Made by a program: the position numbers and the translations under genes. Below the pieces are notes generated by a model that worked only from the letters and a program-made list of their open reading frames with translations, had not been told where the DNA came from and searched no databases. Positions 4,484 to 37,758 of a stretch of DNA of 39,356 nt are shown piece by piece (the stretch's first letter is position 1; every line of letters begins with the position of its first letter). Origin of the DNA: a virus (lineage: Duplodnaviria > Heunggongvirae > Uroviricota > Caudoviricetes); IMG/VR virus record IMGVR_UViG_2671180568_000005, one strand, 5' to 3'.

Positions 4484-4576
4484 CGATACAAATAAAACAT
4501 CAAATTAAATAAGAAAACGTGAAAACCATCCGTATTAACGGAGGTATTCGCACACGCAAATAACGGAGATACAAAA

Positions 4577-4987
4577 ATGCACGCAAAAGAAGAAGGTATC
4601 ATCAGAGCACTGAAAGAAATTTCAAAGACAGAAAACGAAGTAGCGAAAAAAGCCATAGCAAATAATCATATGGACGTCGCAACCCACACACTGATAGTCG
4701 CAAGAGTCACGGCAGAAGCAGCCGAAATTATCGCAAAACAGGATGCTGAACTGGCGGTTCTCAGAACACAACCAGTCACCGGACTGGATTTGTCTAACAC
4801 CGGACGCCTTATTTACACAATTGGCTCGGAGCTACAGCGATACACCATTATCGCCGGGTTACAGGATAAATACCTGATCACTCCTCACCCCATAAGGGAA
4901 TCAGAAATTCTGACAAATCTCCGCCTGATAGAGCGCTCTCAAGTCGCATTCATTGATGACGCACAGTGCACCGTATTTAACGCATAG
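4577..4987 (+). CDS. Hypothetical early-region protein
   Basis: ORF of 136 aa. Confidence 0.5.
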   Translation: MHAKEEGIIRALKEISKTENEVAKKAIANNHMDVATHTLIVARVTAEAAEIIAKQDAELAVLRTQPVTGLDLSNTGRLIYTIGSELQRYTIIAGLQDKYLITPHPIRESEILTNLRLIERSQVAFIDDAQCTVFNA

Positions 4988-5010
4988 AGTTACTGGACAA
5001 AGGGGGCGCA

Positions 5011-5214
5011 ATGGCAATTAAGCATTTTCCCGTCGTTCGCTTTACCTCCAGAGGGCGCGAATACGAGGTCGACGAACGCCTGATTACCACTATCGACAAA
5101 CATCGTTCGGAAAAGGATGCACACCACATCTACCTCACTGACGGCACTTACTTCTGCGCCACTAATGTGGCGCGGGTAAACCTTATCCGACAGGTACAGG
5201 AGCCACGCAGATGA
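5011..5214 (+). CDS. Hypothetical small protein
   Basis: ORF of 67 aa; stop overlaps the next start. Confidence 0.45.
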   Translation: MAIKHFPVVRFTSRGREYEVDERLITTIDKHRSEKDAHHIYLTDGTYFCATNVARVNLIRQVQEPRR

Positions 5215-5477
5215 CCATTCTGGACTACATCGCTACTCATCCGGGGTGTAGCGGCGGAGAGATCGCCGCAGCACTGAATACTCCAACCACAGCCATTAAT
5301 GCTGAGTTACGCCAACTTTGGCGCGGCGGCTTAGTCATCAGAACAAACCGCAGCACAGGTGGTCGCGCTCGCAAAACTGGAGGCCAGGCTTCTTACCACG
5401 TAAACCCGATGCCGTTCGGGTGTAGCAATCCACTTACTCACATGTTTAACCAGCTACTGAAGGAAGCCAGAACATGA
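5211..5477 (+). CDS. Hypothetical protein, possible winged-helix DNA-binding
   Basis: ORF of 88 aa; overlapping stop and start with both neighbours. Confidence 0.45.
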   Translation: MTILDYIATHPGCSGGEIAAALNTPTTAINAELRQLWRGGLVIRTNRSTGGRARKTGGQASYHVNPMPFGCSNPLTHMFNQLLKEART

Positions 5478-5773
5478 GCACCATCAACCACCAGAAGCTA
5501 CGCGAACTGGCATTTGCCCTGCAACGAATGGCAACGCCTCAAAAATTACTGGCATTTCGCGCAATGCTCTCGCCGTCTGCTGTGCTGGCACTGCTGAATG
5601 AGCTGGAGCACGCCAGAACCACGGCTCCTGCCATTCGCCTGACGCTCCATCATGAAATCGCTGATTTCTGCGCGACGTTGGAGGCGCCGGGCGAACCGGA
5701 AACGCCGGAAGCAATACAGCAAGAGCTGCTGCAACGCATTGACAAGGTTTTTGATTTTTTTCTGAACCAGTAA
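5474..5773 (+). CDS. Hypothetical early-region protein
   Basis: ORF of 99 aa. Confidence 0.5.
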   Translation: MSTINHQKLRELAFALQRMATPQKLLAFRAMLSPSAVLALLNELEHARTTAPAIRLTLHHEIADFCATLEAPGEPETPEAIQQELLQRIDKVFDFFLNQ

Positions 5774-6095
5774 GAAACCAGAACATGCACACACAAAAAA
5801 ACCGCTTGCCATGCCGCAATCAGTCAGGTTACATTTCCGCTGCACCTCATAAAACGGGTGCCGGGTTTCGCAGCCCGCTGACAAACGTAGCGCACAACCG
5901 CGCCAGCGGTTTTTTTGTGCGTACTGTATCGCCACGTCTTTTTCGCATCAGAATTATGGTGGGGCGTACGGGGCCGACTTCGGTCGGGCCGGGTTCTGCG
6001 TTTGCCGGTACTGCGAACCTCGTACGTCTCGCCACCCACAGTTTCGCAGCTCTGGATGGTGAGTTTTCAAAACTTACACACGTAGAGGCCACACC

Positions 6096-6326
6096 ATGGC
6101 AAACCGCAAACAGCACCGCGCTATCGCGGAGCGTCGTCACATCCAGACTGAAATCAACCGCAGACTTTCCCGCGCATCACGCGTCGCGCAAATCATGCAC
6201 ATCAATATGCTGCATGAGCGCAGCCACGCACTATCAAACATTTATTCCGCCGCTGTTTTCAGCTATCTGGCGGATGATCTGCACGAGCTTCAACAGCTCA
6301 TCCAGCAGCAAAACAAACTCCATTAA
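6096..6326 (+). CDS. Hypothetical small basic protein
   Basis: ORF of 76 aa with a weak ribosome-binding site; overlapped by an implausible 205-aa ORF in another frame. Confidence 0.3.
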   Translation: MANRKQHRAIAERRHIQTEINRRLSRASRVAQIMHINMLHERSHALSNIYSAAVFSYLADDLHELQQLIQQQNKLH

Positions 6327-6398
6327 TTCCTGTTCCGGGCCTTTCCTGCACCTTGCGGCGGGAGGCCTTCGCACATCTGTAGCAAGAGGATTGCCGCA

Positions 6399-6764
6399 AT
6401 GATTCTCGCCAACGACTTTCTTGAATACCTGCTCAACACAGAACGTGATCTTGCCGCTCGCGTGCGTGATCGTTATGACATGTACCTGAAATCCCTGCCT
6501 GTACCGCAGCTCGCTGACGGAAAAATTGTTATTGATGGTCGCTACATGATCGACAGCCATGAGGGAAATTACAGGCTTTACCGCATTGAAGGTGGCACCC
6601 CGTCCGTTATTGGCATTTACCAGCACCCATCCTCTGCAATCGTCGATGTGATTGCCGACAGCATCCGCATCACACATCGCCATGCCGACACAGAAGACAC
6701 CGTGCTGGAAATTCAGCGGCTGGCTACAGTCTGCCGCGACACCCTGAATGGCATGACGAAGTAA
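6399..6764 (+). CDS. Hypothetical protein immediately upstream of the replicase
   Basis: ORF of 121 aa. Confidence 0.5.
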   Translation: MILANDFLEYLLNTERDLAARVRDRYDMYLKSLPVPQLADGKIVIDGRYMIDSHEGNYRLYRIEGGTPSVIGIYQHPSSAIVDVIADSIRITHRHADTEDTVLEIQRLATVCRDTLNGMTK

Positions 6765-6770
6765 ATCACT

Positions 6771-9669: not shown

Positions 9670-10629
9670 ATGAAAATTTGTATCGATGACGGCTCCACCA
9701 ACATCAAGCTGGCATGGACTGAGAACGGCGAACGCCGCAACGCCATCAGCCCGAACAGCTTCAAGTCGGAATGGTCTGCGCCGTTCGGTGGCACGCAGCC
9801 CGCGAACTACATGCTTGATGGCGTGCGCTATGGTTTTGATCCGGTCAGCGATCGCTTTGTCCAGACGACTGACACGCAATACCAGTACAGCGATGTGAAT
9901 GTCATTGCCATTCATCACGCGCTGGTCAAATCAGGCATCACGCCACAGGAGGTGGATGTGGTTGTCACCCTGCCACTGAGCGAGTATTTCGACACAAACG
10001 CACAGCCGGACATAGCCAACATCAACCGCAAAAAAGCGAACGTTATGCGCCCGGTGGAGTACCAGAACGGCGAAGCATTCACTATCCGTAACGTACGGGT
10101 TATGCCTGAATCCATTCCGGCTGGCTTTAAGGCACTGGCTGACATGAGTCCGTTTGAATCCCTGCTGATTGTGGATTTAGGCGGAACCACGCTGGATGTG
10201 GCAAAGGTTCAGGGACAACTGGCAGGTATCAGCCAGGTGTTTTGCGATCCACACGTAGGCGTTTCCCTGATGGCCGATGCCGTACTGTCGGTGATGGCCA
10301 CTAACGGTATGCGTACCAGTCACCACATCGCCAATACCATTATCGAACATCGCCATGATGAAGCCTGGCTGCGCCAGCACATCCACAATGACGCGCATTA
10401 CGCCAGCCTGATGGCGGTTATTCGTGAAAAGGAAGAAACACTGAAACAACGCGTGATCCGCGCGCTGGCGGGTTTTTCGGGTTACGGGCGGGTGATGGTT
10501 GTCGGTGGCGGGGCAGAGATTGTGGCACCCGCTATCCGCGAAGCCTGCGGAGTTAATGCGACTTTCATCGCGGACGGGGTGCCACAGTTTGCTCTGGTTA
10601 ATGGGCTGTACGCAATGGGCAAGGAGTAA
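9670..10629 (+). CDS. parM: ParM/StbA-family actin-like segregation ATPase
   Basis: N-terminus MKICIDDGSTNIKLAW...ISPNSF...YSDVNVIAIHHAL matches the ParM phosphate-1 and adjacent motifs; DLGGTTLDV phosphate-2-like motif. Confidence 0.8.
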   Translation: MKICIDDGSTNIKLAWTENGERRNAISPNSFKSEWSAPFGGTQPANYMLDGVRYGFDPVSDRFVQTTDTQYQYSDVNVIAIHHALVKSGITPQEVDVVVTLPLSEYFDTNAQPDIANINRKKANVMRPVEYQNGEAFTIRNVRVMPESIPAGFKALADMSPFESLLIVDLGGTTLDVAKVQGQLAGISQVFCDPHVGVSLMADAVLSVMATNGMRTSHHIANTIIEHRHDEAWLRQHIHNDAHYASLMAVIREKEETLKQRVIRALAGFSGYGRVMVVGGGAEIVAPAIREACGVNATFIADGVPQFALVNGLYAMGKE

Positions 10630-10633
10630 ACCA

Positions 10634-10945
10634 ATGACGACACCAACCAGACGGATAAGTTTCTATCTGAAGCCCGCCGCCGTCAAGAACGAAGGCGAAG
10701 CATGCGCCTGGCTGGACAGCCTTACACCAGAAGCCCGCAAAAGTGGTCAACGCGTGGCTTTTCTGGCCGGGCTGGCACTACTGAAAATGAATCCGGCAGA
10801 GGCTTACCGACTGGCTGCATGGGCTGATGATGAGGCGTTATCAATGACACAAACCAGGACAGAACGCCCCGCGTCACAGCCAGTATCAGCCGCACAGATA
10901 ACCAGTCAGATGGCCGGAAATATCCGGGCGTTATTTCCCGAATAA
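10634..10945 (+). CDS. parR: ParR/StbB-like centromere-binding adaptor
   Basis: RRISFYLKPAAV...LDSLTPEARKSGQRVAFLAGLALL...IRALFPE parallels R1 ParR (ribbon-helix-helix N-terminus, conserved C-terminal tail); AAGGAG ribosome-binding site; 4 bp after the parM stop. Confidence 0.7.
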   Translation: MTTPTRRISFYLKPAAVKNEGEACAWLDSLTPEARKSGQRVAFLAGLALLKMNPAEAYRLAAWADDEALSMTQTRTERPASQPVSAAQITSQMAGNIRALFPE

Positions 10946-21150: not shown

Positions 21151-21292
21151 CCCACCCACATGGGGAAACCTCGGAATATGGGGCGACCGCCTTCTGGATG
21201 CACTGGAAACCTGTAACGCGGATAAACGGGCCATTGCTGAACTGGATAAGAGAATAGCCGAACCGACACACCAGACGGGAGTAACACAATGA
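21011..21292 (+). CDS. Rz1-like outer-membrane lipoprotein spanin, overlapping the Rz gene out of frame
   Basis: Signal peptide with lipobox LLTGC and a proline-rich mature region; starts inside the Rz reading frame. Confidence 0.65.
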   Translation: MNAPTLCLTLVLLTGCAGTQNEPGPAPSVRLIPQTLTMPVTPPPFPDPPTWGNLGIWGDRLLDALETCNADKRAIAELDKRIAEPTHQTGVTQ

Positions 21293-23169
21293 CCAGTAAG
21301 AACTTTGCACTGATTACAGCCATGACACAGGCTGAACTGACTCAAAAGGTGAATGAACATCTTGCGAAAGGGTGGCATCTTCAGGGGGAGACGCGGGTTG
21401 CCTACGAACCCGGCACCCCGTGGTATCTAATGCAGGCAATGGTGGCCGATGGCACTACAGACATCTCACCTGATTCCCCCCAGCACGGCAGCGTGCCGGA
21501 GTGGTATTACGTGGTGGTACTTGCTGGTCAATCCAATGCCATGTCATATGGTGATGGAATGCCGCTGCCGGATTCTTACGATGCGCCCCACCCACGCATT
21601 AAGCAACTGGCCCGTCGCAACACAGTGACTCCCGGTGGTAAAGCATGCGCATTTAACGACATCATTCCGGCAGACCACTGCCTGCATGATGTTCAGGATA
21701 TGAGCGCACTGAATCATCCGAAGGCAGACCTGAGCAAAGGGCAGTACGGCTGTGTCGGCCAGGGCTTACATATTGCCAAAAAACTGCTCCCGTATATCCC
21801 GAATAACGCGGGGATCCTGCTGGTACCATGCTGCCGTGGTGGTTCGGCATTCACTCAGGGCGCGGAGGGAACATTCAGTACGACCACGGGGGCCAGCCAG
21901 GATTCGGCGCGCTGGGGTGTGGGTAAACCGTTATATCAGGACCTGATTGCGCGCACTAAAGCTGCATTACAGAAGAACCCGAAAAATGTGTTGCTGGCGG
22001 TGTGCTGGATGCAGGGCGAATTTGACATGAGCGCTGCCACCTACGCACAGCAACCGGACCTGTTCACGGCCATGCTGAAGCAGTTCCGTACTGACCTTTC
22101 CGGATTTAACGCGCAGTGCCATGGCGGCAGTGCTGCAGTTGTACCGTGGATTTGTGGCGACACGACGTATTACTGGAAAAACACATACGGCACACAGTAT
22201 GACTCCGTCTACGGCGCGTACAAAAACAGGGAGAGCGACAACGTTTTCTTTGTGCCGTTCATGACCGACGGTAACGGCAACAACACACCCACCAACTTAC
22301 CGGCAGAAGACCCGGATATTGCTGATGCAGGTTATTACGGCGCGCAATCCCGTAGTAATGGTAATTGGGTATCGTCAAATCGTCCGACACATTTCAGTTC
22401 ATGGGCGCGCAGGGGCATTATTTCGGATCGCCTGGCAACCGCTATTCTGAACGCAGTTGGTCGAACCAGCGCCTTCATCAGCGGTACCGCACCGGAGATT
22501 AAACCCTCNNNNNNNNNNNNNNNNNNNNNNNNNNNNNNNNNNNNNNNNNNNNNNNNNNNNNNNNNNNNNNNNNNNNNNNNNNNNNNNNNNNNNNNNNNNN
22601 NNNNNNNNNNNNNNNNNNNNNNNNNNNNNNNNNNNNNNNNNNNNNNNNNNNNNNNNNNNNNNNNNNNNNNNNNNNNNNNNNNNNNNNNNNNNNNNNNNNN
22701 NNNNNNNNNNNNNNNNNNNNNNNNNNNNNNNNNNNNNNNNNNNNNNNNNNNNNNNNNNNNNNNNNNNNNNNNNNNNNNNNNNNNNNNNNNNNNNNNNNNN
22801 NNNNNNNNNNNNNNNNNNNNNNNNNNNNNNNNNNNNNNNNNNNNNNNNNNNNNNNNNNNNNNNNNNNNNNNNNNNNNNNNNNNNNNNNNNNNNNNNNNNN
22901 NNNNNNNNNNNNNNNNNNNNNNNNNNNNNNNNNNNNNNNNNNNNNNNNNNNNNNNNNNNNNNNNNNNNNNNNNNNNNNNNNNNNNNNNNNNNNNNNNNNN
23001 CACGGTTACTCCGAAACTGAATGGAGTGGCTGGCCCGGCATTCCAGGTCATAAAAGACAGTCTGACACTGGGGCTGAATGCGCTGACGTTAACTGATATC
23101 ACTAAAAATGCCGCGTACGGCGTCGATATCGGCAGCCTGGTGCTGGAAATCAATAATCCCGCAGTATAA
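21289..23169 (+). CDS. NanS-p-like sialate O-acetylesterase (DUF1737-like N-domain plus SASA/SGNH domain); interior replaced by a 492-N gap
   Basis: N-terminus ITAMTQAELTQKVNEHLAKGWHLQGE and esterase block VVVLAGQSNAMSYGDG (GQSN motif); residues encoded by 22509-23000 are unknown. Confidence 0.65.
   Translation: MTSKNFALITAMTQAELTQKVNEHLAKGWHLQGETRVAYEPGTPWYLMQAMVADGTTDISPDSPQHGSVPEWYYVVVLAGQSNAMSYGDGMPLPDSYDAPHPRIKQLARRNTVTPGGKACAFNDIIPADHCLHDVQDMSALNHPKADLSKGQYGCVGQGLHIAKKLLPYIPNNAGILLVPCCRGGSAFTQGAEGTFSTTTGASQDSARWGVGKPLYQDLIARTKAALQKNPKNVLLAVCWMQGEFDMSAATYAQQPDLFTAMLKQFRTDLSGFNAQCHGGSAAVVPWICGDTTYYWKNTYGTQYDSVYGAYKNRESDNVFFVPFMTDGNGNNTPTNLPAEDPDIADAGYYGAQSRSNGNWVSSNRPTHFSSWARRGIISDRLATAILNAVGRTSAFISGTAPEIKPXXXXXXXXXXXXXXXXXXXXXXXXXXXXXXXXXXXXXXXXXXXXXXXXXXXXXXXXXXXXXXXXXXXXXXXXXXXXXXXXXXXXXXXXXXXXXXXXXXXXXXXXXXXXXXXXXXXXXXXXXXXXXXXXXXXXXXXXXXXXXXXXXXXXXXXXXXXXXXXXXXXXXTVTPKLNGVAGPAFQVIKDSLTLGLNALTLTDITKNAAYGVDIGSLVLEINNPAV
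22509..23000. other. Gap (492 N) inside the esterase gene
   Basis: Run of n characters. Confidence 0.99.
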
Positions 23170-26113: not shown

Positions 26114-26714
26114 TTCGTTGTTACCACCATCAGCCAGCAATTTCATGCGTTGTGCCGAAGCCGTCGGAACACGCATTACAGACATTCCGGTAGACCTCAA
26201 CACGCTGTGGTCGCCGGACACCTGCCCGGTGCATCTGCTGCCTTATCTCGCCTGGGCGTTTTCCGTTGACCGCTGGGATCGCAACTGGCCGGAAGAGACA
26301 AAGCGACAGGTGATTCGTGATGCATGGCTGATACACCGACACAAAGGGACCATCAGCGCACTGCGAAGAGCCGTGGAGCCTCTCGGCTACCTGATTGAAG
26401 TAAAGGAGTGGTGGCAACTCAACGAGGAGCCGGGAACATTTCGCATTGTTGTCGGAGTACTTGATCAGGGCATCACCGATGAAATGTATCAGGAACTTGA
26501 GCGCCTTATTGCGGATGCAAAACCAGTAAGTCGCCATCTGACGGGGCTGGCGATCAGCCTGAGTGTGAACGGAAAGATTTTCGTTGGTACGGGATGCTAT
26601 CACGGCGATGCCCTGACGGTTTATCCCTACACCCCGGAGTCCATTATTGTCGAAGGGGATTATTTCCCTGCCCCGGCCATTCATTTAATTGATAATCTGA
26701 GAGTAAACGCATGA
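26106..26714 (+). CDS. I: Baseplate/tail protein (P2 gpI-like)
   Basis: MSNSLLPP...LWSPDTCPVHLLPYLAWAFSVDRWD parallels gpI. Confidence 0.85.
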   Translation: MSNSLLPPSASNFMRCAEAVGTRITDIPVDLNTLWSPDTCPVHLLPYLAWAFSVDRWDRNWPEETKRQVIRDAWLIHRHKGTISALRRAVEPLGYLIEVKEWWQLNEEPGTFRIVVGVLDQGITDEMYQELERLIADAKPVSRHLTGLAISLSVNGKIFVGTGCYHGDALTVYPYTPESIIVEGDYFPAPAIHLIDNLRVNA

Positions 26715-28440
26715 CAGTGAAATACTACGCCATTCTGACTAATCAGGGCGCGGCACGACTGGCTAACGCGACGATGCTCGGCAGTAAGCTGAATCTGACG
26801 CGAATGGCCGTTGGTGATGCAAATGGTGTGTTACCAACACCAGACCCTGCACAAACAAAACTGATTAACCAGAAACGCATTGCACCGCTGAATCTTCTGA
26901 GTGTTGACCCTAACAATCAGAGCCAGATTATTGCGGAGCAAATCATCCCTGAAAGCGAGGGTGGATTCTGGATCCGTGAGATTGGTCTTTATGATGATAA
27001 AGGTGTACTCATTGCGGTGGCAAACTGCCCGGAAACGTACAAACCGCAGTTGCAGGAAGGCAGTGGACGCACCCAGACTATCCGCATGATTCTGGTTGTC
27101 ACGAACACCGAAGCCATCACGCTGAAAATCGACCCGTCTGTGGTTCTGGCAACCCGCAAATATGTGGATGATAAAATATCAGAGCACGAGCAGTCACGAC
27201 GTCACCCGGACGCCTCGCTGACCGCAAAAGGCTTTGTTCAACTTAGCAGTGCCACGGACAGTCAATCAGAAACTGAGGCTGCCACGCCGAAGGCTGTGAA
27301 AATCGCGTATGATCTGGCCCGGGGAAAATACACAGCCCAGGATGCAACAACGACCCGTAAAGGGATCGTACAACTGAGCAGCGCCACCAACAGCACCTCT
27401 GAAACGCTGGCCGCCACACCAAAAGCCGTCAAGGCTGCATACGACCTTGCAGCCGGCAAGGCGCCCGTCAGCCACACTCACCCGTGGAGTCAGATAACGG
27501 GAGTGCCTGCTGCCTCGCTGACGGCAAAAGGCACCGTACAACTGAGCAGTGCCATCAACAGCACGTCTGAAATACTGGCCGCCACACCGAAAGCGGTCAA
27601 GGCTGCATACGATCTGGCAGCCGGCAAGGCGCCCGTCAGCCACACTCACCCGTGGAGTCAGATAACGGGAGTGCCTGCTGCCTCGCTGACGGCAAAAGGC
27701 ACCGTACAACTGAGCAGTGCCATCAACAGCACGTCTGAAATACTGGCCGCCACACCGAAAGCGGTCAAGGCTGCATACGATCTGGCAAACGGAAAACAAC
27801 CGGCAGATGCCACGCTCACTGCTCTGGCAGGACTTGCCACTGCAGCAGATCGGTTGCCTTATTTTACCGGAGCAGACCGCGCAGCGCTGGCAACCCTTAC
27901 AGCTATTGGTCGCGCTATTATCGCTAAGGGCAGTATAAAAGATGTCCTCAATTACCTTGGTTTNNNNNNNNNNTTGGTTTGGGGGAAGGCTCTGCATTGC
28001 CTGTTGGTGTACCGGTTCCATGGCCCACCGCCACACCGCCAGCAGGCTGGTTACAGTGCAACGGAGCTACGTTCACCAAAGAACAATATCCTGTTCTGGC
28101 CAGAGTCTACCCGACCCTCCGTCTTCCCGATTTGCGCGGTGAGTTTATCCGTGGATGGGACGGTGGTCGCAAGGTTGATACCGGGCGTGCGCTACTTTCA
28201 TTTCAGGAAGGGACTATCGTATCCGGTTTTGATGATAATGATAACGGAGATATCAGTTCGCTCGGCTCTACACAATACGGATTTGGTGACGCTTTAACCT
28301 CTAATCAACTGGGGGTCTTAAATGGCAAAAAGTGGATATTTGATGCATCCTCTAAAGGTGCACAAAGATATGACTGGTGGGCTTATGTATCAGCTCGCCC
28401 CCGCAATATCGCATTTAACTATATCGTGAGGGCGGCGTGA
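26711..28440 (+). CDS. H: Tail fibre protein (gpH-like): constant part fused to a variable tip; reading frame apparently broken by the 10-N gap
   Basis: N-terminus MTVKYYAILTNQGAARLANA; repeated fibre motif TAKGxVQLSSA...TPKAVKAAYDLA; after the gap the frame 27979..28440 continues with GEGSALPVGVPVPWPTATPPAGW and ends NYIVRAA. Confidence 0.75.
27451..27786 (+). repeat. Perfect tandem duplication of a 168-bp (56-codon) unit inside the fibre gene
   Basis: 27451-27618 repeats at 27619-27786; two older diverged copies of the motif lie upstream. Confidence 0.85.
27964..27973. other. Scaffold gap (10 N) at the constant/variable fibre junction
   Basis: Run of n characters; ttggttt is present on both sides. 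Confidence 0.99.
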
Positions 28441-28446
28441 TACCGT

Positions 28447-29061
28447 TCAACTGGCAAGTGCCAGTGGTGCTTCCGGCCAGCTGATTTCAGGTGCCGTGCT
28501 GATATCCAGTGCGTTCAGCTCGTCGATATAATCCAGCACGGCGTTCAGTTTTGCCGTTTCTTCTGGTGTCAGACTGCGACCAGCACGCAGTTTGAGGTTG
28601 ATAAGATCGACGGACGCCATCGCCTGTTTCACCCGTTGCTGGCGTTGCTGTCTGGCAACCTCCAGTTCTGCGGTTCGCTGCCGTTCAGTATCGGTTACCC
28701 ACGCCTCACCGTTCCAGGTATCCCATGGCGTGGCTGGCTGTTTTGTGGTGGTGTCCGCCGGGTAATCACCCGGTTGGGTAATCAGAACGGGGTTACCGTT
28801 CTCCGTGCTGTATACCGTCTCGCCGCGGTGATCAGGCACATGCTCCCACCCGTTCAGCGTGGCAGTCCGGCAAACCACGTAACCCGAAATTGCCTCCGGC
28901 GGTGCATCGGCGCACGAATGTGCCGGAGTACCCACCCCAAGGGCGAGATACTCCACAGAGGATGAGGTGTATTCCCGGGTTTCCTCGTCATAGTGATATA
29001 CAGTGATATCGCCCGCTACAGTGGCGATACCGTTTTCATCCAGAACTGCAGTGTTACTCAT
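28447..29061 (-). CDS. Tail fibre assembly chaperone (Tfa/gpG/Mu U family)
   Basis: 204 aa with a C-terminal ...LDYIDELNALDISTAPEISWPEAP tail typical of Tfa proteins; adjacent to the alternative fibre tip. Confidence 0.75.
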   Translation of the reverse strand: MSNTAVLDENGIATVAGDITVYHYDEETREYTSSSVEYLALGVGTPAHSCADAPPEAISGYVVCRTATLNGWEHVPDHRGETVYSTENGNPVLITQPGDYPADTTTKQPATPWDTWNGEAWVTDTERQRTAELEVARQQRQQRVKQAMASVDLINLKLRAGRSLTPEETAKLNAVLDYIDELNALDISTAPEISWPEAPLALAS

Positions 29062-29630
29062 TAAACTGCCCTCACAATGTAATTAAGTGCAATGCTACGG
29101 GGTCTGACAGTGATACCCTTCGCATACCCGCTTCTGATAGAGGTCAGAATAGTAGCCTGCATACCATTGTCTGACATTGCTATGACAGGATCGCTGAATG
29201 TTGTCCCGTCCGGCATTTTAAAGCTGCCCTCACGAAGGTCTGTAATGGAATCTTCATTGTTGAATCCCATGCCGACTATCCCCGAGGTTCCCGTAGTGTC
29301 CTGGTTATAATAATCCAGCATTGCTGTTCTTAACAGCGTTGCCCCTTGTGCGGACAGCAACTTACGTCCTGTATCAACTTTGCGCCCGTCATCCCATCCA
29401 CGGATAAACTCACCGCGTAAATCGGGAAGACGGAGGGTCGGGTAGGCTCTGGCCAGAACAGGATATTGTTCTTTTGTAAAGGCGCGCCCGTCGCACTTTA
29501 ACCAGCCTGCTGGCGGTGTGGCGGTGGGCCACGGAACAGGCACACCAACGGGTAGCGCCGAGCCTTCTCCTAAACCAACGTTTTCGTTTTTATCCCTACC
29601 TATACCAACTCTGTATTTTTCACGAAACAA
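29061..29630 (-). CDS. Alternative tail-fibre C-terminal cassette, promoterless and on the opposite strand
   Basis: Shares GLGEGSALPVGVPVPWPTATPPAGWL and the C-terminal NYIVRA motif with the tip at 27979-28440; begins with TTG and has no independent ribosome-binding site. Confidence 0.7.
   Translation of the reverse strand: MFREKYRVGIGRDKNENVGLGEGSALPVGVPVPWPTATPPAGWLKCDGRAFTKEQYPVLARAYPTLRLPDLRGEFIRGWDDGRKVDTGRKLLSAQGATLLRTAMLDYYNQDTTGTSGIVGMGFNNEDSITDLREGSFKMPDGTTFSDPVIAMSDNGMQATILTSIRSGYAKGITVRPRSIALNYIVRAV
29565..29590. promoter_or_regulatory. Candidate right crossover site for the invertase (ttctcctaaaccaacgttttcgtttt), mirrored across the gap at about 27955-27990
   Basis: AAACC/GGTTT half-site pattern reminiscent of hix/gix/cix sites; position immediately upstream of the invertase gene. 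Confidence 0.35.
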
Positions 29631-29644
29631 AGAGGATGTTTTTT

Positions 29645-30244
29645 ATGCAAATTGGCTATATTCGTGTGTCAACAAACGACCAGAACACGGATTTACAACG
29701 CAATGCACTGAACTGCGCAGGATGTGAACTGATTTTTGAAGATAAAATCAGCGGAACGAAATCAACCAGACCGGGATTGAAAAAACTGCTCAGAACGCTA
29801 TCAGAAGGAGATACGCTGGTTGTCTGGAAGCTGGACAGACTGGGCAGAAGTATGAAACACCTGATCACGCTTATTGAGGAATTGCGGGAAAAAGGTGTTA
29901 ATTTCCGTAGTCTGACGGACAGCATTGACACGTCAACACCCATGGGGCGTTTCTTTTTTCACGTCATGGGGGCTTTAGCCGAAATGGAACGTGAATTAAT
30001 TGTAGAACGTACACTGGCTGGGCTGGCAGCAGCACGCGCACAAGGACGCATTGGCGGACGTCGCCCGAAGTTGACAAAAGAACAACACGAGCAAATAGCG
30101 AGGCTGATTAAAAACGGTCATGACAGGAAACAACTGGCGATCATTTACGACATCGGCATATCGACGATTTATCGTTATCACCCTGTAGGCGATATACAGG
30201 CTGAAGAAACAACCAGGCAGACTCAGGAAAATGAAAACCGCTAA
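29645..30244 (+). CDS. Serine DNA invertase of the Hin/Gin/Pin/Cin family
   Basis: MQIGYIRVSTNDQNTDLQRNAL...VVWKLDRLGRSMKHLI...GRFFFHVMGALAEMERELI with the catalytic Ser in YIRVST and a C-terminal HTH. Confidence 0.9.
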   Translation: MQIGYIRVSTNDQNTDLQRNALNCAGCELIFEDKISGTKSTRPGLKKLLRTLSEGDTLVVWKLDRLGRSMKHLITLIEELREKGVNFRSLTDSIDTSTPMGRFFFHVMGALAEMERELIVERTLAGLAAARAQGRIGGRRPKLTKEQHEQIARLIKNGHDRKQLAIIYDIGISTIYRYHPVGDIQAEETTRQTQENENR

Positions 30245-30263
30245 TCTGACCATTAGCGGTTTT
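30234..30263. terminator. Bidirectional terminator hairpin aaaaccgctaat-ctgacc-attagcggtttt between the convergent invertase and U genes
   Basis: 12-bp perfect stem flanked by A and T runs. Confidence 0.65.
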
Positions 30264-30270
30264 GCGTTAA

Positions 30271-30765
30271 TCAAAACAGCCCTTTAACAGAGCTGGCCGC
30301 GCTGTTGAGGGATGATGTGACCTTATCTTTGAAGCCGGACAGCATATCACTGAACGATGAGGATTGCAGACGCTCCCGCAAATCCTCATCACAGCGTTCA
30401 AGAGTCAGTGAAAATTCTATCTTTTTCGCCTTACCATAGCGATCAAACTCGGAACGGGTCGTATTCGTTTCAGTCAGTACATACATGCCGTAAATCTGCC
30501 CGACACCATCAATCAGAGGCCAGGGGCGTCCTGTATATGCCTGCGTGGTCAGCAACGAAAGCGACACTTCGCCACCTGTAATTTCAGGATAAAGCACGCC
30601 GGAAAGCACGATGCGATCATCACCTGCACCGATATACTGCCAGCTTGCTGAGCGGTTTACGCGCTCATTTTTCACATGCCGCCAGCTTTTGTTTTGCTGT
30701 AACTGCTGATGCGGCAATGTGCGCAGCTCAAAAACAAACATGCCGTAGATCATCATCATGGCCAT
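30271..30765 (-). CDS. U: Tail protein (P2 gpU-like)
   Basis: FVFELRTLPHQQLQQNKSWRH...RIVLSGVLYPEITGG parallels gpU. Confidence 0.8.
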   Translation of the reverse strand: MAMMMIYGMFVFELRTLPHQQLQQNKSWRHVKNERVNRSASWQYIGAGDDRIVLSGVLYPEITGGEVSLSLLTTQAYTGRPWPLIDGVGQIYGMYVLTETNTTRSEFDRYGKAKKIEFSLTLERCDEDLRERLQSSSFSDMLSGFKDKVTSSLNSAASSVKGLF

Positions 30766-30771
30766 GACTCC

Positions 30772-33588
30772 TCAATCTTTATCGTAAAAACTGCCACGCC
30801 CGGCACGGGCACGCCGTTCCATTTCTGCCCTGACCATTTCACCGACCAGTTTCGCCAGTTCGCGGGGATTCTGCGTAACAACGTTATGCAGATGAACATG
30901 AATTTCACCACCAAATCCGGAGGCAACAGGCTCCCGGTTACGGGAAGTTACAGGAACTGATGCCACTGGAGATCGTATGGCCTCCGCCACCGGGCGGGAG
31001 CTGGCCGCAACAACAGGGACCAGCGCCGGAGGCAGCGGAGCCGGGACCACGGGAGTGATATTCATTGCGGGGGCAGGCTTACTGACCTGTGCAATCTTCC
31101 GCTCCTGCCACTCCCCACGAACAGCAAGTGCGCGGGGCAGGTTCTTAAAGACAATATCGCCGGGGCCAATACGTTTTTTTGTCTCATCAACCAGCTTACC
31201 TGTGTTATCAGCAATTTTGCTGAGTCTGCGCAGCGTACCGGTATTGCTGTCTGTGAGCGGTTTGTTGTCTTTGGGTTTATCACCTCCGGTGCCATTGCCA
31301 TTTTCCACAGGCTTCGGCGGATTGATTTTCGCCAGGTCCCCCTGAAGTAAGGCAACCTTGTCCTGAAGAATGGCCGCACGCTGTGCGTCTTCGATTTTCT
31401 TGCGCGCCCTTTCCGCTTCATCCGGAAGGACGCCAAGTTTTTCAAGTATCCACGCCAGCGTATCCAGCAACATTTTTGCAGGCGTCAGAACAAGTTGTAA
31501 CGCACCGCCAAGAACGTTACCGAATATCTCGCCAGCACTGGTACATTTATCCAGCGTTTCCTTGCTGGATTCCATCGGTGACAGCAGCGATTTAAACCAG
31601 TTAAACACCTGGCTGATCCCGCTTCCGATTGCGTCAAAAACAGGACCAAACCGTTCAAAGGTTTCGCGCAACGGGTTCAGCCTTTCCATAATCCCGTTGA
31701 ACACCCCGGCATAAAACGCCTTAATGGGTTCCCAGTATTTCCAGATGAGAACCGCCGCAGCCACAAACGCAGCAGCAATCAATCCGACCGGACTGAACAG
31801 CGCCCCGATAGCGCCTCCCAGCAAAGAAACGGAACCCGTCACCATTCCCCACAGCGCAGGCAACACCCTGACGACATTCATTGACCGGGTAAGAATGTCA
31901 AAACCAAGACGCAGGGTGGCCAGCTTCCCGTAAAGCACCCCAATAACCAGCGACAACGAGCCAATCGTTGCAGTCATTGCCAGCAACGCACCGCCTGCTA
32001 TCAGTAGCTGGCGCGTCAGTACCGGATGGGCCTGCGCCAGCGAGGTGACTTTTTCAAGCACCCGCGTGAGCCACTGCGTGACAGAACGCAGCGGACCGTC
32101 AACCAGATCACTGATGCGAATACGAAGACCTTCCCATGCGCTGTCGAGATTTTTCAGGTCCCCATCAAGATTATCGGCCATTACTTTTGCAACGCGATCG
32201 GACTCTCCCCTTGCCCCCTGCAATTCTCTGGTCAGTTTTTGCAGCTCTCCTGAACCAGCCGCCGCAACAAGCGTCTGCAAACCAACGAACGCCTCTTCTC
32301 CGGCGATGTCCTTGAAGAAGGAGACCTGGTCCACCTGTCCGTATTTTTGTGTCGCCTTATAGAGATCAAGCAGCACATCCTCCATCGGGCGCATTTTGCC
32401 TCTGGCGTCAGCAACTGACACCCCCAGCTCTTTCAGTGCATCAGCCGCAGCTTTTGGCGGTGATGCAAGGCGGGACAGACTTGCGCGCATGGCCGTACCA
32501 GCATCGCTTCCGCGAAGACCATTATTGGCAAGCATCCCGGCCATGGCTGCCGCTTCTTCAAGACTGATACCAAGTTTTGCGGCAACCGGACCGGTATACT
32601 TCATGGTTTCGCCCAGCGCGCGTAAATCAGTATTGGTCCGGGTGAATGCCGCTGTCAGCGTATCGCCAACCCGGTCCATTTGATCGGCTGTCAGGTTGAA
32701 CTGTGTGAGGATATTGGAGCCTATATCCGCCGTCTCGCCGAGTTCGACGCCACCTGCCAGCGCCATATTAAGAACACCGGGCAATGCGGCCTGAATGGCC
32801 TGCGGAGTAAAACCAGCCATTGCCAGAAAGCTCTGTCCACTGGCGGCATCACTCGCAGTAAACTGTGTTTCAGAGCCAAGTTTTAACGCCTGCTCACGCA
32901 GCGCCTTAAACTGCGGGCTGTTTTTGTCGATTCGCGTCAGTGCCTGAACGCGGGACATCTCTTTCCCGAACCCGATCGCAGGCTGCAAAAAACGCCCGGC
33001 AGCATAGCCGCCAGCCGCTGCCGCACCAATTGTCAGCGCACCACCTGTTTTCAGTTTTCCCGCGGTTTCCTGCGCGCGCGAATACCGCTCACGCGCCCGC
33101 GTTACACGCGCAAGCGCCTGCCGTTCGCGTTCAAGCTGGTTGTTGTACTGTTCGGTGCGTCTGATGGCCTGCTGGATGGTGTTATCGCTGCCTGTCAGGG
33201 AAATGCCGTGGCGTTTCAGCTCTCCGCCAAGTTCCCGCATTTTCTGAATTTCCCGTGTGCGCGATTCATTCAGGCGTTCAAGCCGGGTGCTTAACTGCTG
33301 CATCAGCTTTTGTTGTTTTTCGCTGAGCACTGTACCCGTGCGTTGTAACTGATTAAGGGCGTTAAGCTGGCGTCGTGCTTTCACGATGCCCGCATCCGCT
33401 TTACTGACAGCGTCACGGGCGCGCTCAAATGAACGCGCCTGACGCTCGAGATTTTTGATCGCCCCCTGCGTTCGCTGGATGGAGTCACCAAACTGCCCCA
33501 TCAGGCGGCGGGCGTTTTCGGCAGGCCGGGTCAGCCTGTCAACGGCGCTGAAAGCGACCCGGATATCAAGAGTCTTCATTGTCTGCAT
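30772..33588 (-). CDS. T: Tail tape measure protein (P2 gpT-like)
   Basis: 938 aa, coiled-coil and Gly/Ala-rich transmembrane-like middle; position between E and U. Confidence 0.85.
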   Translation of the reverse strand: MQTMKTLDIRVAFSAVDRLTRPAENARRLMGQFGDSIQRTQGAIKNLERQARSFERARDAVSKADAGIVKARRQLNALNQLQRTGTVLSEKQQKLMQQLSTRLERLNESRTREIQKMRELGGELKRHGISLTGSDNTIQQAIRRTEQYNNQLERERQALARVTRARERYSRAQETAGKLKTGGALTIGAAAAGGYAAGRFLQPAIGFGKEMSRVQALTRIDKNSPQFKALREQALKLGSETQFTASDAASGQSFLAMAGFTPQAIQAALPGVLNMALAGGVELGETADIGSNILTQFNLTADQMDRVGDTLTAAFTRTNTDLRALGETMKYTGPVAAKLGISLEEAAAMAGMLANNGLRGSDAGTAMRASLSRLASPPKAAADALKELGVSVADARGKMRPMEDVLLDLYKATQKYGQVDQVSFFKDIAGEEAFVGLQTLVAAAGSGELQKLTRELQGARGESDRVAKVMADNLDGDLKNLDSAWEGLRIRISDLVDGPLRSVTQWLTRVLEKVTSLAQAHPVLTRQLLIAGGALLAMTATIGSLSLVIGVLYGKLATLRLGFDILTRSMNVVRVLPALWGMVTGSVSLLGGAIGALFSPVGLIAAAFVAAAVLIWKYWEPIKAFYAGVFNGIMERLNPLRETFERFGPVFDAIGSGISQVFNWFKSLLSPMESSKETLDKCTSAGEIFGNVLGGALQLVLTPAKMLLDTLAWILEKLGVLPDEAERARKKIEDAQRAAILQDKVALLQGDLAKINPPKPVENGNGTGGDKPKDNKPLTDSNTGTLRRLSKIADNTGKLVDETKKRIGPGDIVFKNLPRALAVRGEWQERKIAQVSKPAPAMNITPVVPAPLPPALVPVVAASSRPVAEAIRSPVASVPVTSRNREPVASGFGGEIHVHLHNVVTQNPRELAKLVGEMVRAEMERRARAGRGSFYDKD

Positions 33589-34104
33589 TCCCGCTGCGAA
33601 GTGCCGCCCGCTCGCGCCAGCTAACCACTTCGCCGGGCGTCATCATGAAGATTTCGGCGGGCGACCAGTTAAAAATGGCGGCAATATCCGCCACCAGATC
33701 TTCGATGTGCTCAAAGCACACCAGGGTGATTACGCTGCCGTCTCCTGCACGCTCTTCGCGCCAGAGTCTGGCTCGCTCATAAAATTTACAGCCACAGCGC
33801 ACAACTGAATAAAATCGCGTGACGACATTTTTTTAATCATCACTTCATCCAGTCGTGGCGAGGTCACGCGAGGCAACAGCGTGAACATGGTATCCGCTTT
33901 CAGATTCAGCACATCAGACAGCGACAGACCACGCAGGGATCCCGCCTGCTCAATAGCCCCGGTGATCTCCACATATGTGATTTTTTCGCCACCACGCTCA
34001 ATTGGCCGGGAAAGTTTTACACCACGTTCGACAGCCATATCCTCACCTGCCGTCACATCATCCGCTACGGTGTTATTCCGGGTTTCAGTATCGATATCTT
34101 TCAT
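33566..34104 (-). CDS. Tail assembly chaperone E+E' made by programmed -1 frameshift at AAATTTT (33781-33787)
   Basis: The E frame (33730..34104) and the overlapping -1 frame (33566..33802) meet at a canonical X_XXY_YYZ heptamer; arrangement as in P2 E/E'. Confidence 0.6.
33730..34104 (-). CDS. E: Tail assembly chaperone (P2 gpE-like), zero-frame product
   Basis: 124-aa ORF directly upstream of the tape measure gene. Confidence 0.75.
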   Translation of the reverse strand: MKDIDTETRNNTVADDVTAGEDMAVERGVKLSRPIERGGEKITYVEITGAIEQAGSLRGLSLSDVLNLKADTMFTLLPRVTSPRLDEVMIKKMSSRDFIQLCAVAVNFMSEPDSGAKSVQETAA

Positions 34105-34159
34105 CAGTTGTCTCCTTTTCAGTCAGAGGCGACGCACTGCGCCGCCTGCATATTACTTA

Positions 34160-34672
34160 TCAGCCAAGCCCAAGCGCGGAACGAATGCGGTCAGGCACAA
34201 TGTCCTTGCCGTCCTTCCGGTAGATGTGGTTCAACAGGTCGATTTCCCACAGCGGGCGATCGTTAACGCTCAGCTTGTAGTAGGTGTTTTTGACAGCGTA
34301 AGTGTGTGATGTGGCTTCGCCCTGTTTGGCCTCCCCCATATCAATTTCCGTCACACGCCCGCGCATCTCGATTTCATACAGATCGCTTTCTGCATCGGTG
34401 TAGTATTCACCCGCAAAACGCAGCAGCGTGCCGTCAATCGTGCCGCCATATTTAAGGAACAGCGCACGAACAGCTCCCCCCATAACAAAACTCGCATCAA
34501 GCGCGGAGTCGTCCAGACCGAGATCAATACTTACCGCCCCCATCATGCCACCACCACGATAGCTGTCGGTTTTGCGCGTCAGTTTGGGCGGCGTGACGGA
34601 CGTCACCTTACCCACTTCGTTTTCACCATCCACAAACAGCGTAAAAAAGCGAAGATGTTTTGGTACAGCCAT
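34160..34672 (-). CDS. FII: Tail tube protein (P2 gpFII-like)
   Basis: 170 aa; position after the sheath gene. Confidence 0.85.
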   Translation of the reverse strand: MAVPKHLRFFTLFVDGENEVGKVTSVTPPKLTRKTDSYRGGGMMGAVSIDLGLDDSALDASFVMGGAVRALFLKYGGTIDGTLLRFAGEYYTDAESDLYEIEMRGRVTEIDMGEAKQGEATSHTYAVKNTYYKLSVNDRPLWEIDLLNHIYRKDGKDIVPDRIRSALGLG

Positions 34673-35856
34673 CAGGCACCTCCCAGCACCGCAAATGCGG
34701 GACCAAAGAATTCATCAGTAAACGACTGGTAAAGCTCCATGTCTTCCAGCGGCGGAACGGGCGTATATTTGTAGCGAATACGCACACGCCCCTGACGTAA
34801 ATTCGTGGTGCTGTTATCCACGATGTCATACCAGCACTCCGCGCCAATCAGTTTCCCGGCAGTAACCAGTGAATCCAGTTTTGCCCTGATGGCACTGATA
34901 ACATCCTTCACGTTCGCAGGCGTCAGTGGACTGTCGATGGTTTCAAACTGCGCTTCCGCAATTGAATCAGCCAGCACCTGTGCGGTTCGGGTATACACCT
35001 CAAAGATGTAGGCGTTCGTTTCCGGTGTGCGGTTGCCCCAGAAGCGGAACCCGTTACGACGAATAATGGTCGTGATTTCTTTGTTGTTGAGGCTGTTGGC
35101 ATCACTGTCTTCGGCCTGTAACGACCAGAACACATGCCTCGACATCCCCAGCACATTTTTAACCGGAACGTTGGACAGCGATTTGTGCCAGCCCTGCTCA
35201 TGGTCAATGTACGCACGAAGGCCGCACGCATAAGCAGGCGCGGGGAACGTTTCGTTTTTGCCACTTTTCGGGTTGTAGGCGATGAAGTCAGGCCATAAGA
35301 GCATCACCTCACGTTCGTTGAATTTCTGGCGGTAGGTAATCGCCTCAGCCATCGTGTTACAACCATGACATGCGGCATACACAAACGCGCGCAGTTTACC
35401 CGCAATCACGCACAGGGATTTTGTCACCGCCTCCGTGTCCAGCTCCGGCGCGGCCAGAATACGCGGACGGTATCCGATGCTTTCATCCTGCTCTGCAACA
35501 AGCAGCGCATACATCCCCGTATAGCTGCCGTCAGATTCAGAACCACCGATAACCAGTTGATCCTGCGTCTTTCCGTTTTCTTCTTTGTGTTCAGCCACGC
35601 GAACGACGATCACCTTTGTGCTCACCTGGTCTGCGATGGCCTTAAGCGCACGATAAAGCGTCCCCGTTGTCCCGCATTTTCCCAGCACGTCATTGACGCG
35701 GGTCAGCAGTGTGGGCTTGTTCAGCGGGAACAGCTTCGCGTCCGCATCATCCGCCGTTGCCACGATACCGATAACGCTGGAATCAACATCATTAATCGCT
35801 GTTACCAGGTCGGTACTTTCCGTAACACGGGCACCATGAAAACGAGTTTCACTCAT
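34672..35856 (-). CDS. FI: Tail sheath protein (P2 gpFI-like)
   Basis: 394 aa; AAGGGG ribosome-binding site upstream. Confidence 0.85.
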   Translation of the reverse strand: MSETRFHGARVTESTDLVTAINDVDSSVIGIVATADDADAKLFPLNKPTLLTRVNDVLGKCGTTGTLYRALKAIADQVSTKVIVVRVAEHKEENGKTQDQLVIGGSESDGSYTGMYALLVAEQDESIGYRPRILAAPELDTEAVTKSLCVIAGKLRAFVYAACHGCNTMAEAITYRQKFNEREVMLLWPDFIAYNPKSGKNETFPAPAYACGLRAYIDHEQGWHKSLSNVPVKNVLGMSRHVFWSLQAEDSDANSLNNKEITTIIRRNGFRFWGNRTPETNAYIFEVYTRTAQVLADSIAEAQFETIDSPLTPANVKDVISAIRAKLDSLVTAGKLIGAECWYDIVDNSTTNLRQGRVRIRYKYTPVPPLEDMELYQSFTDEFFGPAFAVLGGA

Positions 35857-36013: not shown

Positions 36014-37123
36014 ATGACCGACACCACCATGCAATTGCTCAGTCAGGGCACAGACCCCGTGAAAATGCCGGATTTTGATATTCTCGCGGAGGGTAAAACG
36101 CTGTCAGGCGTGGCAGAGTGCCTGATGAGCCTGTCACTGACCGACAACCGGGGATTTGAGGCGGACCAGCTCACCATCACGCTGGATGATGCGGATGGTC
36201 AGTTGCTGCTACCGCCACGGGGCGCGCGCCTGACGGTTCTCATTGGCTGGAAAGGAGAACCGCTGACAGAAAAAGGCACTTACATTGTTGATGAAATCGC
36301 TCACGAAGGACCGCCGGACAGGCTGACGGTTTCAGCCAGAAGCGCAGATTTTCGGGATGAATTTAACGTTAAACGTGAGGTGTCCTGGCATGATGTGACC
36401 GTTGAGCGCGTGGTATCCGCCATCGCTCATCGGTACGGTCTGAAACCACAAATCAGCGAAATGCTGATGGATATTGAAATCGACCACGCTGACCAGACCG
36501 AAGAAAGCGACATGTCCTTCCTTACGCGCATGGCGGAAATGCTGGGCGCAATCACTACGGTAAAAAGCGGTAATCTGTTATTCATCATGCCAGGCGGTGG
36601 CGTGAACGCACAGGGCCAGCCGTTGCCCTCGTTCGCCATCACGCGCAGCAGTGGCGATCACCATCAGTTCCGCATTGCTGACCGCGAAGCGTATACGGGG
36701 GTACGCGCTTACTGGCTTGATCTTAATTACGGGAAAAAGAAAAAAGTCAGCGTGAAACGCCGCAAACCGCCAAAACCCAAAAAGGAGAAAAGCAGCAGCC
36801 GTGAAGGTGATTATATGGAAGGCGCGGAAGGCAATGTGTTTGTGTTACGCAAGACCTATCAGAACGAACAGGCAGCAAGACGCGCAGCGGCGGCAAAGTG
36901 GCAGCAGCTACAACGCGGAGCCGCATCATTCTCCATCACGCTGGCGCGTGGACGTGCAGAACTCTACCCCGAAATGCATGGTACGGTAACAGGATTTAAA
37001 AGCGAGATTGATAATCAGGACTGGATCATTGCAAAAGCCGAGCACACTATTGATAACAGCGGCTTTACCACGCAGCTTGAGCTTGAGGCAAAAATCCCGG
37101 AATGGATAGCGGAAACAGAGTGA
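36014..37123 (+). CDS. D: Tail protein D (P2 gpD-like)
   Basis: Start at the ATG 6 nt after GGGAGGGA; the ORF track's upstream extension from 35882 is probably not translated. Confidence 0.8.
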   Translation: MTDTTMQLLSQGTDPVKMPDFDILAEGKTLSGVAECLMSLSLTDNRGFEADQLTITLDDADGQLLLPPRGARLTVLIGWKGEPLTEKGTYIVDEIAHEGPPDRLTVSARSADFRDEFNVKREVSWHDVTVERVVSAIAHRYGLKPQISEMLMDIEIDHADQTEESDMSFLTRMAEMLGAITTVKSGNLLFIMPGGGVNAQGQPLPSFAITRSSGDHHQFRIADREAYTGVRAYWLDLNYGKKKKVSVKRRKPPKPKKEKSSSREGDYMEGAEGNVFVLRKTYQNEQAARRAAAAKWQQLQRGAASFSITLARGRAELYPEMHGTVTGFKSEIDNQDWIIAKAEHTIDNSGFTTQLELEAKIPEWIAETE

Positions 37124-37165
37124 GCAACTTAGAATAGCGGCAGCACCACGTTAAGGGAGGTCGCT

Positions 37166-37426
37166 ATGTTCCGTTGTCCGCTTTGTGGCGCATCTGCCCG
37201 TATCCGCACCAGTCGTCCGGAAAATGATTCAAACACCGTGCGGCAAAAGTATTACCAGTGTAACAACCTGGAATGCGGCGTATGCTTCTCAACACTGGAA
37301 GCTTTCCATAAATTCACATCAAAACACGCCTCCGCCGTTCACTCTTCAGAAGGTATCCCGTGGCATGAGCTGCCAGCTTCACACAGGGGAAACAATCAGA
37401 TGAGTTTGCCTTTACCTCAGAACTAA
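37166..37426 (+). CDS. ogr: Late-gene transcriptional activator, Ogr/Delta zinc-finger family
   Basis: MFRCPLCGASARIRTSR...YYQCNNLECG with the Cys-X2-Cys...Cys-X4-Cys arrangement of Ogr. Confidence 0.8.
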   Translation: MFRCPLCGASARIRTSRPENDSNTVRQKYYQCNNLECGVCFSTLEAFHKFTSKHASAVHSSEGIPWHELPASHRGNNQMSLPLPQN

Positions 37427-37617: not shown

Positions 37618-37758
37618 ATGTCGCAAAAATCGCTTACGGCCATCACGTTCTGCGTGACGGTAATCCTCATCATCTGGATGCTACACGGTTCGCTGTGTGA
37701 AATACGGATGAGCTTCTGGGGAGCGGAGTTTGCGGCGTTCTTACAGTGTAAGCAGTAA
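37618..37758 (+). CDS. hok: Hok/Gef-family type I toxin (46 aa)
   Basis: MSQKSLTAITFCVTVILIIWMLHGSLCEIRMSFWGAEFAAFLQCKQ: transmembrane segment plus the SLCEIR and E-AAF motifs of Hok/Gef. Confidence 0.75.
   Translation: MSQKSLTAITFCVTVILIIWMLHGSLCEIRMSFWGAEFAAFLQCKQ

Follow-up and report, generated by a model that had tools for sequence, protein, structure and literature searches.

How can a phage tail fibre with two exchangeable tips be assembled if the locus supplies a chaperone gene for one of them? The question arises at an invertible segment of an Escherichia coli P2-like prophage, contained in IMG/VR record IMGVR_UViG_2671180568_000005 (Caudoviricetes), whose entire 39,356 nt we analysed and refer to here as the window. 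This segment is very probably a DNA flip-switch that swaps the receptor-binding fibre tip of the prophage, and a member of a known, widespread family. In the proposed mechanism, a serine invertase would recombine two inverted 26-bp hix-like sites, one in the fibre gene and the other beside the invertase gene, flipping a segment of ~1.6 kb so that the fibre is fused either to tip 1, as in the orientation shown, or to tip 2. In the tip-2 state, the fused tip would be followed directly by the sole chaperone gene, a TfaE-type tfa whose start overlaps the tip-2 stop codon. The role of the switch would be in the host range of a P2-like prophage with the P88 gene layout, residing in E. coli PCN033 or a strain identical to it.

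The 5' part of the fibre gene is constant and P2 gpH-like (26711–27963, plus strand). In the closed 570-residue product, it carries a Phage_tail_fib N-terminal domain and Phage_fiber_2 repeats (Pfam), and it stops at the crossover site with ...KDVLNYLG. Fused to it, and hence ON, is the tip-1 cassette (27974–28440, plus strand; open reading frame (ORF) 27979–28440), which has a Collar domain (PF07484, E = 3e-16) and belongs to PHROG 523 (tail collar fibre). The whole of tip 1 can be aligned with the solved short tail fibre 9cuy (E = 5e-17), and it is also matched by the T4 gp37 collar (2XGF, E = 4e-13). Tip 1 is an 'orphan' in that it has no chaperone gene of its own: its stop codon lies 6 bp from the stop codon of tfa, which is encoded on the opposite strand (28447–29061, minus strand; Caudo_TAP PF02413, E = 5.5e-28; PHROG 105) and, as the segment is shown here, runs antisense to the fibre operon. 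Tfa is 59% identical to e14 TfaE, and its gene is preceded by a GAGGG ribosome-binding site of its own. The initial annotation had already placed tip 1 at 27979–28440 and a single Tfa gene at 28447–29061, and the Collar and Caudo_TAP matches coincide with these intervals.

The alternative C-terminus, the tip-2 cassette, lies on the minus strand at 29061–29578 (Collar, E = 5e-16), and the tfa ATG overlaps its stop codon (TAATG). An ORF reaching to 29630 had been listed for tip 2; the Collar domain is indeed there, but the real cassette stops at the crossover core, at 29578, and the 19 codons beyond it are incidental read-through into the invertase-side flank. Because tip 2 lacks a start codon and promoter of its own, it would be silent in the orientation shown, and the annotation of the finished E. 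coli PCN033 chromosome, in which the whole fibre is tail fiber protein WP_047938337.1, calls it a pseudo fragment 'missing N-terminus'. When we modelled the flip in silico, tip 2 was fused in frame to give a 587-residue fibre and only then did tfa stand downstream of its tip, as had been predicted. The constant part of the fibre gene contains a repeat with a 168-nt period (27359–27619 versus 27527–27787, 95.8% identical) that corresponds to the Phage_fiber_2 repeats, and the annotated fibre length varies among the strains examined.

The segment of ~1.6 kb is bounded by two inverted, hix-like 26-bp crossover sites. The left site, TCCTCAATTACC-TT-GGTTTGGGGGAA, spans 27945–27987, where it is interrupted by a 10-N gap (27964–27973) and a duplicated TTGGTTT (27974–27980); the right site, TTCTCCTAAACC-AA-CGTTTTCGTTTT, lies at 29565–29590 and has a core dinucleotide complementary to that of the left site. 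The cassette-side half-site TTGGTTTRGGRGAAGGCTC has exactly 2 matches in the 39 kb, in inverted orientation, against a chance expectation of 0.03. An inverted repeat of 226 nt at 85% identity has its left arm at 27974–28199, where the conserved N-terminal portion of the collar domain is encoded, and its right arm at 29353–29578. Its longest perfect part is 33 bp (28021–28053 in the left arm, 29499–29531 in the right) and is maximal; the initial annotation had this stretch exactly, but gave the whole repeat as about 80 bp.

Just outside the segment, on its right, lies the gene for a Pin/Min-type serine DNA invertase of 199 residues (29645–30244, plus strand). The protein begins with MQIGYIRVSTNDQ and has Resolvase (E = 2e-51) and HTH_7 (E = 1e-12) domains in Pfam; at 82.5% identity to e14 PinE and 86.7% to the invertase of phage P88, it bears out the Hin/Gin/Pin-type assignment made at first. 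One accession, WP_001375851.1, is common to PCN033 and to the isolates U13A and U14A discussed below. Systems of this kind normally have a Fis-bound recombinational enhancer in cis, within the 5' part of the invertase gene; here, 15-mers resembling Fis sites begin at gene positions 94 and 131 and are also present in pinE, though their spacing and quality are not diagnostic.

The 10-N gap carries information about the state of the segment. Outside its three N runs (88–97, 22509–23000 and 27964–27973), the window matches the PCN033 chromosome with 0 mismatches, and the sole difference across the segment is one gap of 17 nt, made up of 10 N and one copy of TTGGTTT, the heptamer that flanks the 27964–27973 run on both sides. 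Removal of the N run and one TTGGTTT gave a 1713-nt ORF whose 570-residue product equals the PCN033 coding sequence WP_047938337.1; the gap sits at the left crossover and its closure restores the frame, both as initially described. The left contig ends at the last base common to both orientations, and the right contig begins at the first common base; ACC|TTGGTTT and ACG|TTGGTTT differ just upstream of the core, and the contig ends therefore fall where the orientations diverge. Since the ends lie at these divergence points and the break is not at the 33-bp repeat, a culture of mixed orientation is the best explanation, and the gap with its duplicated TTGGTTT would most likely be an assembly break from a culture in which both orientations were present, a cause that had been suggested from the start.

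Draft assemblies of other Enterobacterales behave in the same way. Among 13 draft contigs (loci L014–L042; Citrobacter, Kluyvera, Yokenella, Trabulsiella, Mangrovibacter, Pectobacterium, Mixta and others) that end 67–205 nt upstream of a pin-like gene, 8 start no more than 13 nt from AAACCAA, and two (L022 and L032) start exactly at this core. Judged from these contigs, assemblers routinely break at the AAACCAA crossover core.

A gap at the left end of the segment might have hidden a second chaperone gene, lost in misassembled or collapsed sequence, given that canonical segments have two. We reject this possibility: the window follows the finished PCN033 chromosome colinearly and with 0 mismatches, the gap closes through a 7-bp overlap, a mere 6 bp separate the stop codon of tip 1 from that of tfa, the same tip-1/tfa junction recurs in 166 finished genomes, and a six-frame hidden Markov model scan of the whole prophage found no second tfa, only the single match.

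Both arrangements of the switch occur in finished E. coli genomes. The junction of the constant part with tip 1 was contiguous in 166 of them and the junction with tip 2 in 284, some of which may be fixed arrangements, and the invertase is intact. The isolates U13A and U14A (5,061,273 and 5,061,272 bp) do not differ at the locus outside the repeat arms, but the segment is inverted in one relative to the other, with the left exchange mapping within the 7-bp TTGGTTT core. Two observations weigh against the explanation proposed here. The right junction of the window was assembled without a break, and the right (invertase-side) arm of U13A is chimeric (L003 5695–5752), with ~40 nt tip-2-like and the remainder tip-1-like, so that the U13A/U14A pair is not a clean two-core exchange. 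Such a chimera could have arisen by gene conversion between the arms, or during consensus polishing if reads of both orientations were mixed.

These observations also bear on a reading in which the gap is an ordinary assembly failure, the segment is fixed here, and inversion elsewhere is RecA-dependent between the 226-bp repeats. The unbroken right junction and the exchange within the repeat seen in the U13A arm would fit it, as would the other 10-N join of the window (88–97), a plain repeat break in IS200. We nevertheless consider it quite improbable, because the assembly is interrupted inside the 7-bp core and both contigs stop where the orientations diverge, no perfect repeat exceeds 33 bp, this core is also where contigs of other genera break, U13A and U14A have the same intact invertase, and site-specific inversion has been documented for the same sites in E. 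coli EC958 (PMC4134206).

For the EC958 prophage Phi2, Forde et al. 2014 (PMC4134206) list the sites TCCTCAATTACCTTGGTTTAGGAGAA and ...ACGTTGGTTTGGGGGAA together with an imperfect repeat of 227 bp; the invertible segment measures 2067 bp, and both of its orientations were present in PacBio reads. Both crossover sites of the window match these published sites and the published consensus, in line with the comparison that the initial annotation had proposed. By comparison with Table 3 of that paper, the two prophages share TCCTCAATTACCTT as the half-site on the constant side, and GGTTTGGGGGAA and GGTTTAGGAGAA as the halves on the cassette side (PMC4134206). The left site of the window combines the constant half of the Phi2 5' site with the cassette half of the Phi2 3' site. 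Tfa is 99% identical between the two prophages, and the tip-1 and tip-2 cassettes are near-identical; unlike the window, Phi2 has a third cassette, adjoins aroA and has no converging tail operon.

A related 'shufflon' was described in a P2-like prophage of enteropathogenic E. coli E2348/69, with 3 repeats and 4 isomers detected by polymerase chain reaction (Goldberg et al. 2014, PMC4272514). It has three cassettes and inversions of 2.2 kb and 1.8 kb, versus two cassettes in the window; the same paper mentions a second P2-like prophage with a simpler, two-variant version (PMC4272514). The text consulted of PMC4134206 and PMC4272514 contains no remark on a chaperone belonging to a single tip.

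The closest relatives with larger arrays are the P1/P7-like plasmids of Min type. A multiple-inversion region of this kind, Min, was reportedly characterised on plasmid p15B by Sandmeier and colleagues in 1990–92. Like the window, these plasmids combine a constant fibre part with collar cassettes starting TTGGTTTRGGRGAAGG, have one tfaE-type gene coupled to one cassette and carry an adjacent pin/min invertase gene; unlike it, with its P2-like backbone and just two crossover sites, they have 7–9 cassettes, many isomers and a P1-like backbone. In PLSDB, 215 P1-like plasmids match this region, and the best ones list a single "tail fiber assembly protein" beside several "phage tail protein" cassettes. 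The collar-cassette arrays lie at 1778–6711 in plasmid pMCR_SCKP-LL83 (L097) and at 3492–7388 in a P1-like element (L092). The invertible region of pMCR_SCKP-LL83 is 99% identical to the p15B Min region according to its authors (PMC5786510). All features of the Min-type arrays are present in the window except for more than two crossover sites; with exactly two, it is the minimal two-cassette form, equivalent to the simpler version mentioned in PMC4272514. The initial annotation had presented a single chaperone gene as a departure from known segments and had missed that this layout is not unusual and is already in the literature, as can be seen from PMC5786510, PMC4134206 and PMC4272514. The window is a minimal two-cassette member of a known family common in E. 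coli, and its architecture is not new.

The contrast drawn with canonical inversion segments, which have one chaperone gene per tip, is upheld by e14 and P88. The e14 P segment (pinE, stfP-tfaP / tfaE-stfE) resembles the window in the homology of StfE and TfaE to tip 2 and Tfa (47% and 59%), in PinE (82.5% identical), in the stop/start overlap and in the position of the invertase gene; it differs in having two chaperone genes and a second tip, StfP, that is not collar-type. Phage P88 (Xuanwuvirus) shares the tail-gene layout and an invertase that is 86.7% identical, but has two unrelated tips, each with its own chaperone gene, where the window has paralogous tips and one tfa. Mu G and P1 C also use a serine invertase, 26-bp sites and a constant plus variable fibre gene; each has two unrelated tips, each with its own U/Tfa gene. 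The co-oriented chaperone per tip that is characteristic of G/C/P-type segments is absent from the window. More distant likenesses are found in T4, where the gp37 tip and gp12-like short fibres share the collar domain and a C-terminal ...NIAFNYIVRxA strand with the window tips but are not switched by inversion, with gp37 needing gp38, and in the R64 shufflon (PilV C-termini, Rci), which places alternative C-terminal cassettes on a constant gene with no per-cassette helpers. The latter is an analogy only, as it involves a tyrosine recombinase, a pilus adhesin and unrelated sequence.

How far the imbalance between tips and chaperones extends could be seen from arrays of different size. Beside one tfa each, we counted 2 collar cassettes in the window and in L006, 3 in AVS0225 and EC958 Phi2, 5 in two P88-like prophages (L093 and L094), 7 in the P1-like element L092 and 9 in pMCR_SCKP-LL83. 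The ~470-bp collar cassettes of the window, AVS0225, EC958, L092–L094 and L097 all begin with the half-site TTGGTTTRGGRGAAGG. A single tfa is the rule wherever every cassette is collar-type. The tfa allele co-varies with the tip directly upstream, as seen by clustering of the variable parts: the window tfa allele (99–100%) accompanies the tip-2 type, the L093 allele a different type, and TfaE accompanies StfE. Cognate tip/tfa pairs all have one base in common between the stop and start coordinates. Tip-1-type cassettes are orphans in the window, EC958 and L092–L094, and the StfE-type tip, cognate in e14, is an orphan in L092. The chaperone asymmetry is real and general; we found no discussion of it in the literature searched, with the original p15B papers outside that search.

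Two-tip segments in Rosenbergiella (L026 5052–6962) and in a Sodalis metagenome-assembled genome (L041 1514–3608) have a collar tip without a chaperone; their sole tfa, TfaP-like or Mu-U/P88-like, goes with a non-collar tip on the other arm. The idea suggested by these segments, that collar tips never have a TfaE-type chaperone, was ruled out by Enterobacter asburiae, L095 and L096. The TUM13770 locus, considered as a possible tfa-less array, is frameshifted and uninformative.

How, then, would tip 1 fold when it is ON? Conservation of the translational coupling suggests that Tfa may be made only together with its own tip. No sigma-70-like promoter was predicted in 27800–30900, and the single match to the P2-late-type TGT-N12-ACA motif (29612–29629) is not above chance and has no usable −10 element; a promoter for tfa in the tip-1-ON orientation was set aside on these grounds. 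Chaperone-independent folding of tip 1 is favoured over supply of Tfa in trans and over defective particles because tfa is antisense, has no predicted promoter and is coupled to tip 2, and because tip 1 resembles 9cuy and gp37. There is precedent for a collar tip that does without Tfa in the T4 gp12-type short fibres, which need gp57A but no Tfa/gp38-type protein. From sequence comparison, the chances that tip 1 and other orphan tips form working fibres without a co-expressed dedicated chaperone seem to us about even; the broader statement, that orphan-class collar tips assemble functional fibres without co-expressed Tfa and that the TfaE-type gene is an optional or cassette-specific accessory, is one we put forward tentatively, at slightly less than even confidence.

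Several findings weigh against chaperone independence. Every array keeps exactly one tfa, never zero. Tip-1-type tips have their own coupled TfaE-type gene in the 2+2 segments of L095 (a P88-like prophage of E. coli), L096 (a Mu-like prophage) and L090 (E. asburiae); this cognate tip-1-type/tfa junction is rare in E. coli (5 finished genomes at 80% coverage or above). The TfaE-type N-terminal domains are 56–85% identical despite unrelated cognate tip inserts, which is compatible with a generalist chaperone.

The same findings lend support to a shared chaperone acting in trans, in which a single TfaE-type protein folds all collar tips through their conserved collar and C-terminal parts: exactly one tfa is kept per array, tip-1-type and StfE-type tips have cognate TfaE-type genes elsewhere, and the chaperone N-terminal domains are conserved beyond their tips. 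We regard this arrangement as possible but rather unlikely; the tfa allele co-varies with the tip immediately upstream, and as long as tip 1 is ON, tfa lies antisense to the fibre operon. Tfa would also need a source in that state, which might be a weak internal promoter or transcription that enters from the gpFI–gpU late operon, passing a terminator and crossing the invertase gene in antisense. In favour of such a source, tfa has its own GAGGG ribosome-binding site and the late operon does converge on the segment in this prophage. Between gpU (30271–30765, minus strand; Pfam) and the invertase gene, however, there is a stem-loop (30234–30263) that a terminator scan recognised as terminator-like on the minus strand and that probably acts in both directions, as TTTT follows the same palindromic stem when the plus strand is read; a promoter-like site was not found in the interval scanned, and the TGT-N12-ACA match at 29612 is not above chance. 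Read-through from the converging gpU operon was rejected as a general solution on account of this stem-loop and because EC958 Phi2 and the P1-like plasmids and elements have no converging late operon.

A further alternative is that particles made with tip 1 ON lack functional fibres, and that the orphan cassettes act only as an OFF phase or as a reservoir for recombination. Two points would agree with this view: it is generally known that P2, Mu and T4 cannot make their fibres without a Tfa-type chaperone (gpG, U and gp38, respectively), and tfa is not co-oriented when tip 1 is ON. The orphan tips nevertheless look like proteins under selection. Comparing orphans with orphans, the variable regions of tip 1 have a ratio of non-synonymous to synonymous substitution rates (dN/dS) of 0.16–0.20 at a synonymous divergence (dS) of ~0.5, and are thus maintained as proteins by purifying selection. 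The orphan ORFs are also intact in all finished genomes and plasmids examined, and with up to 8 orphans per single tfa, most isomers would be dead. We consider defective tip-1 particles improbable, and chaperone-independent folding the better account of these tips.

The surrounding prophage is P2-like, with integrase, Cox, replication endonuclease, portal, terminase, capsid and lysis genes, V-W-J-I-H, D and ogr; its assignment as P88-like (Peduoviridae, Xuanwuvirus-type) is by gene layout in the PCN033 and P88 annotation. As in P88, the tail block FI-FII-E-E'-T-U (~30234–35856), including the tape-measure gene, has the opposite orientation to that in P2, converging on the fibre gene and the segment. 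The gpD and ogr genes (36014–37426) have the P2 orientation, and a hok/gef gene lies past ogr (~37618–37758). The early region holds ParM and a plasmid partition/stability protein (~9670–10945, plus strand; PCN033 annotation). The two other N runs differ from the one at 27964. The 10-N join at 88–97 lies inside an IS200C copy, and window positions 1–87 have no match in the PCN033 neighbourhood, so that this is a plain repeat-induced contig join without overlap. The run of 492 N at 22509–23000 has the exact length of its PCN033 counterpart and is therefore a sized gap or a mask, not a deletion; it falls inside a DUF6645-domain gene (~21289–23169, plus strand) that sits between the lysis and tail-completion genes.

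For the annotation of enterobacterial prophages, these results mean that gaps and contig ends beside pin-like genes mark active inversion switches, and that the fragments annotated there as "partial phage tail protein" represent alternative ends of a gene rather than decay. As a switch, the segment is ordinary and of a kind documented before; the testable question that it raises is the chaperone requirement. With many collar tips per chaperone gene (up to 9 per tfaE), the tips may fold unaided or one chaperone may serve them all, and the answer sets the minimum size of a transplantable host-range cassette, in phage biology as in engineering. If orphan tips do fold without Tfa, each ~470-bp cassette would be a plug-in module for host range, sufficient by itself, and a large and common class of enterobacterial phage fibres would break the textbook rule that every tip has its chaperone.

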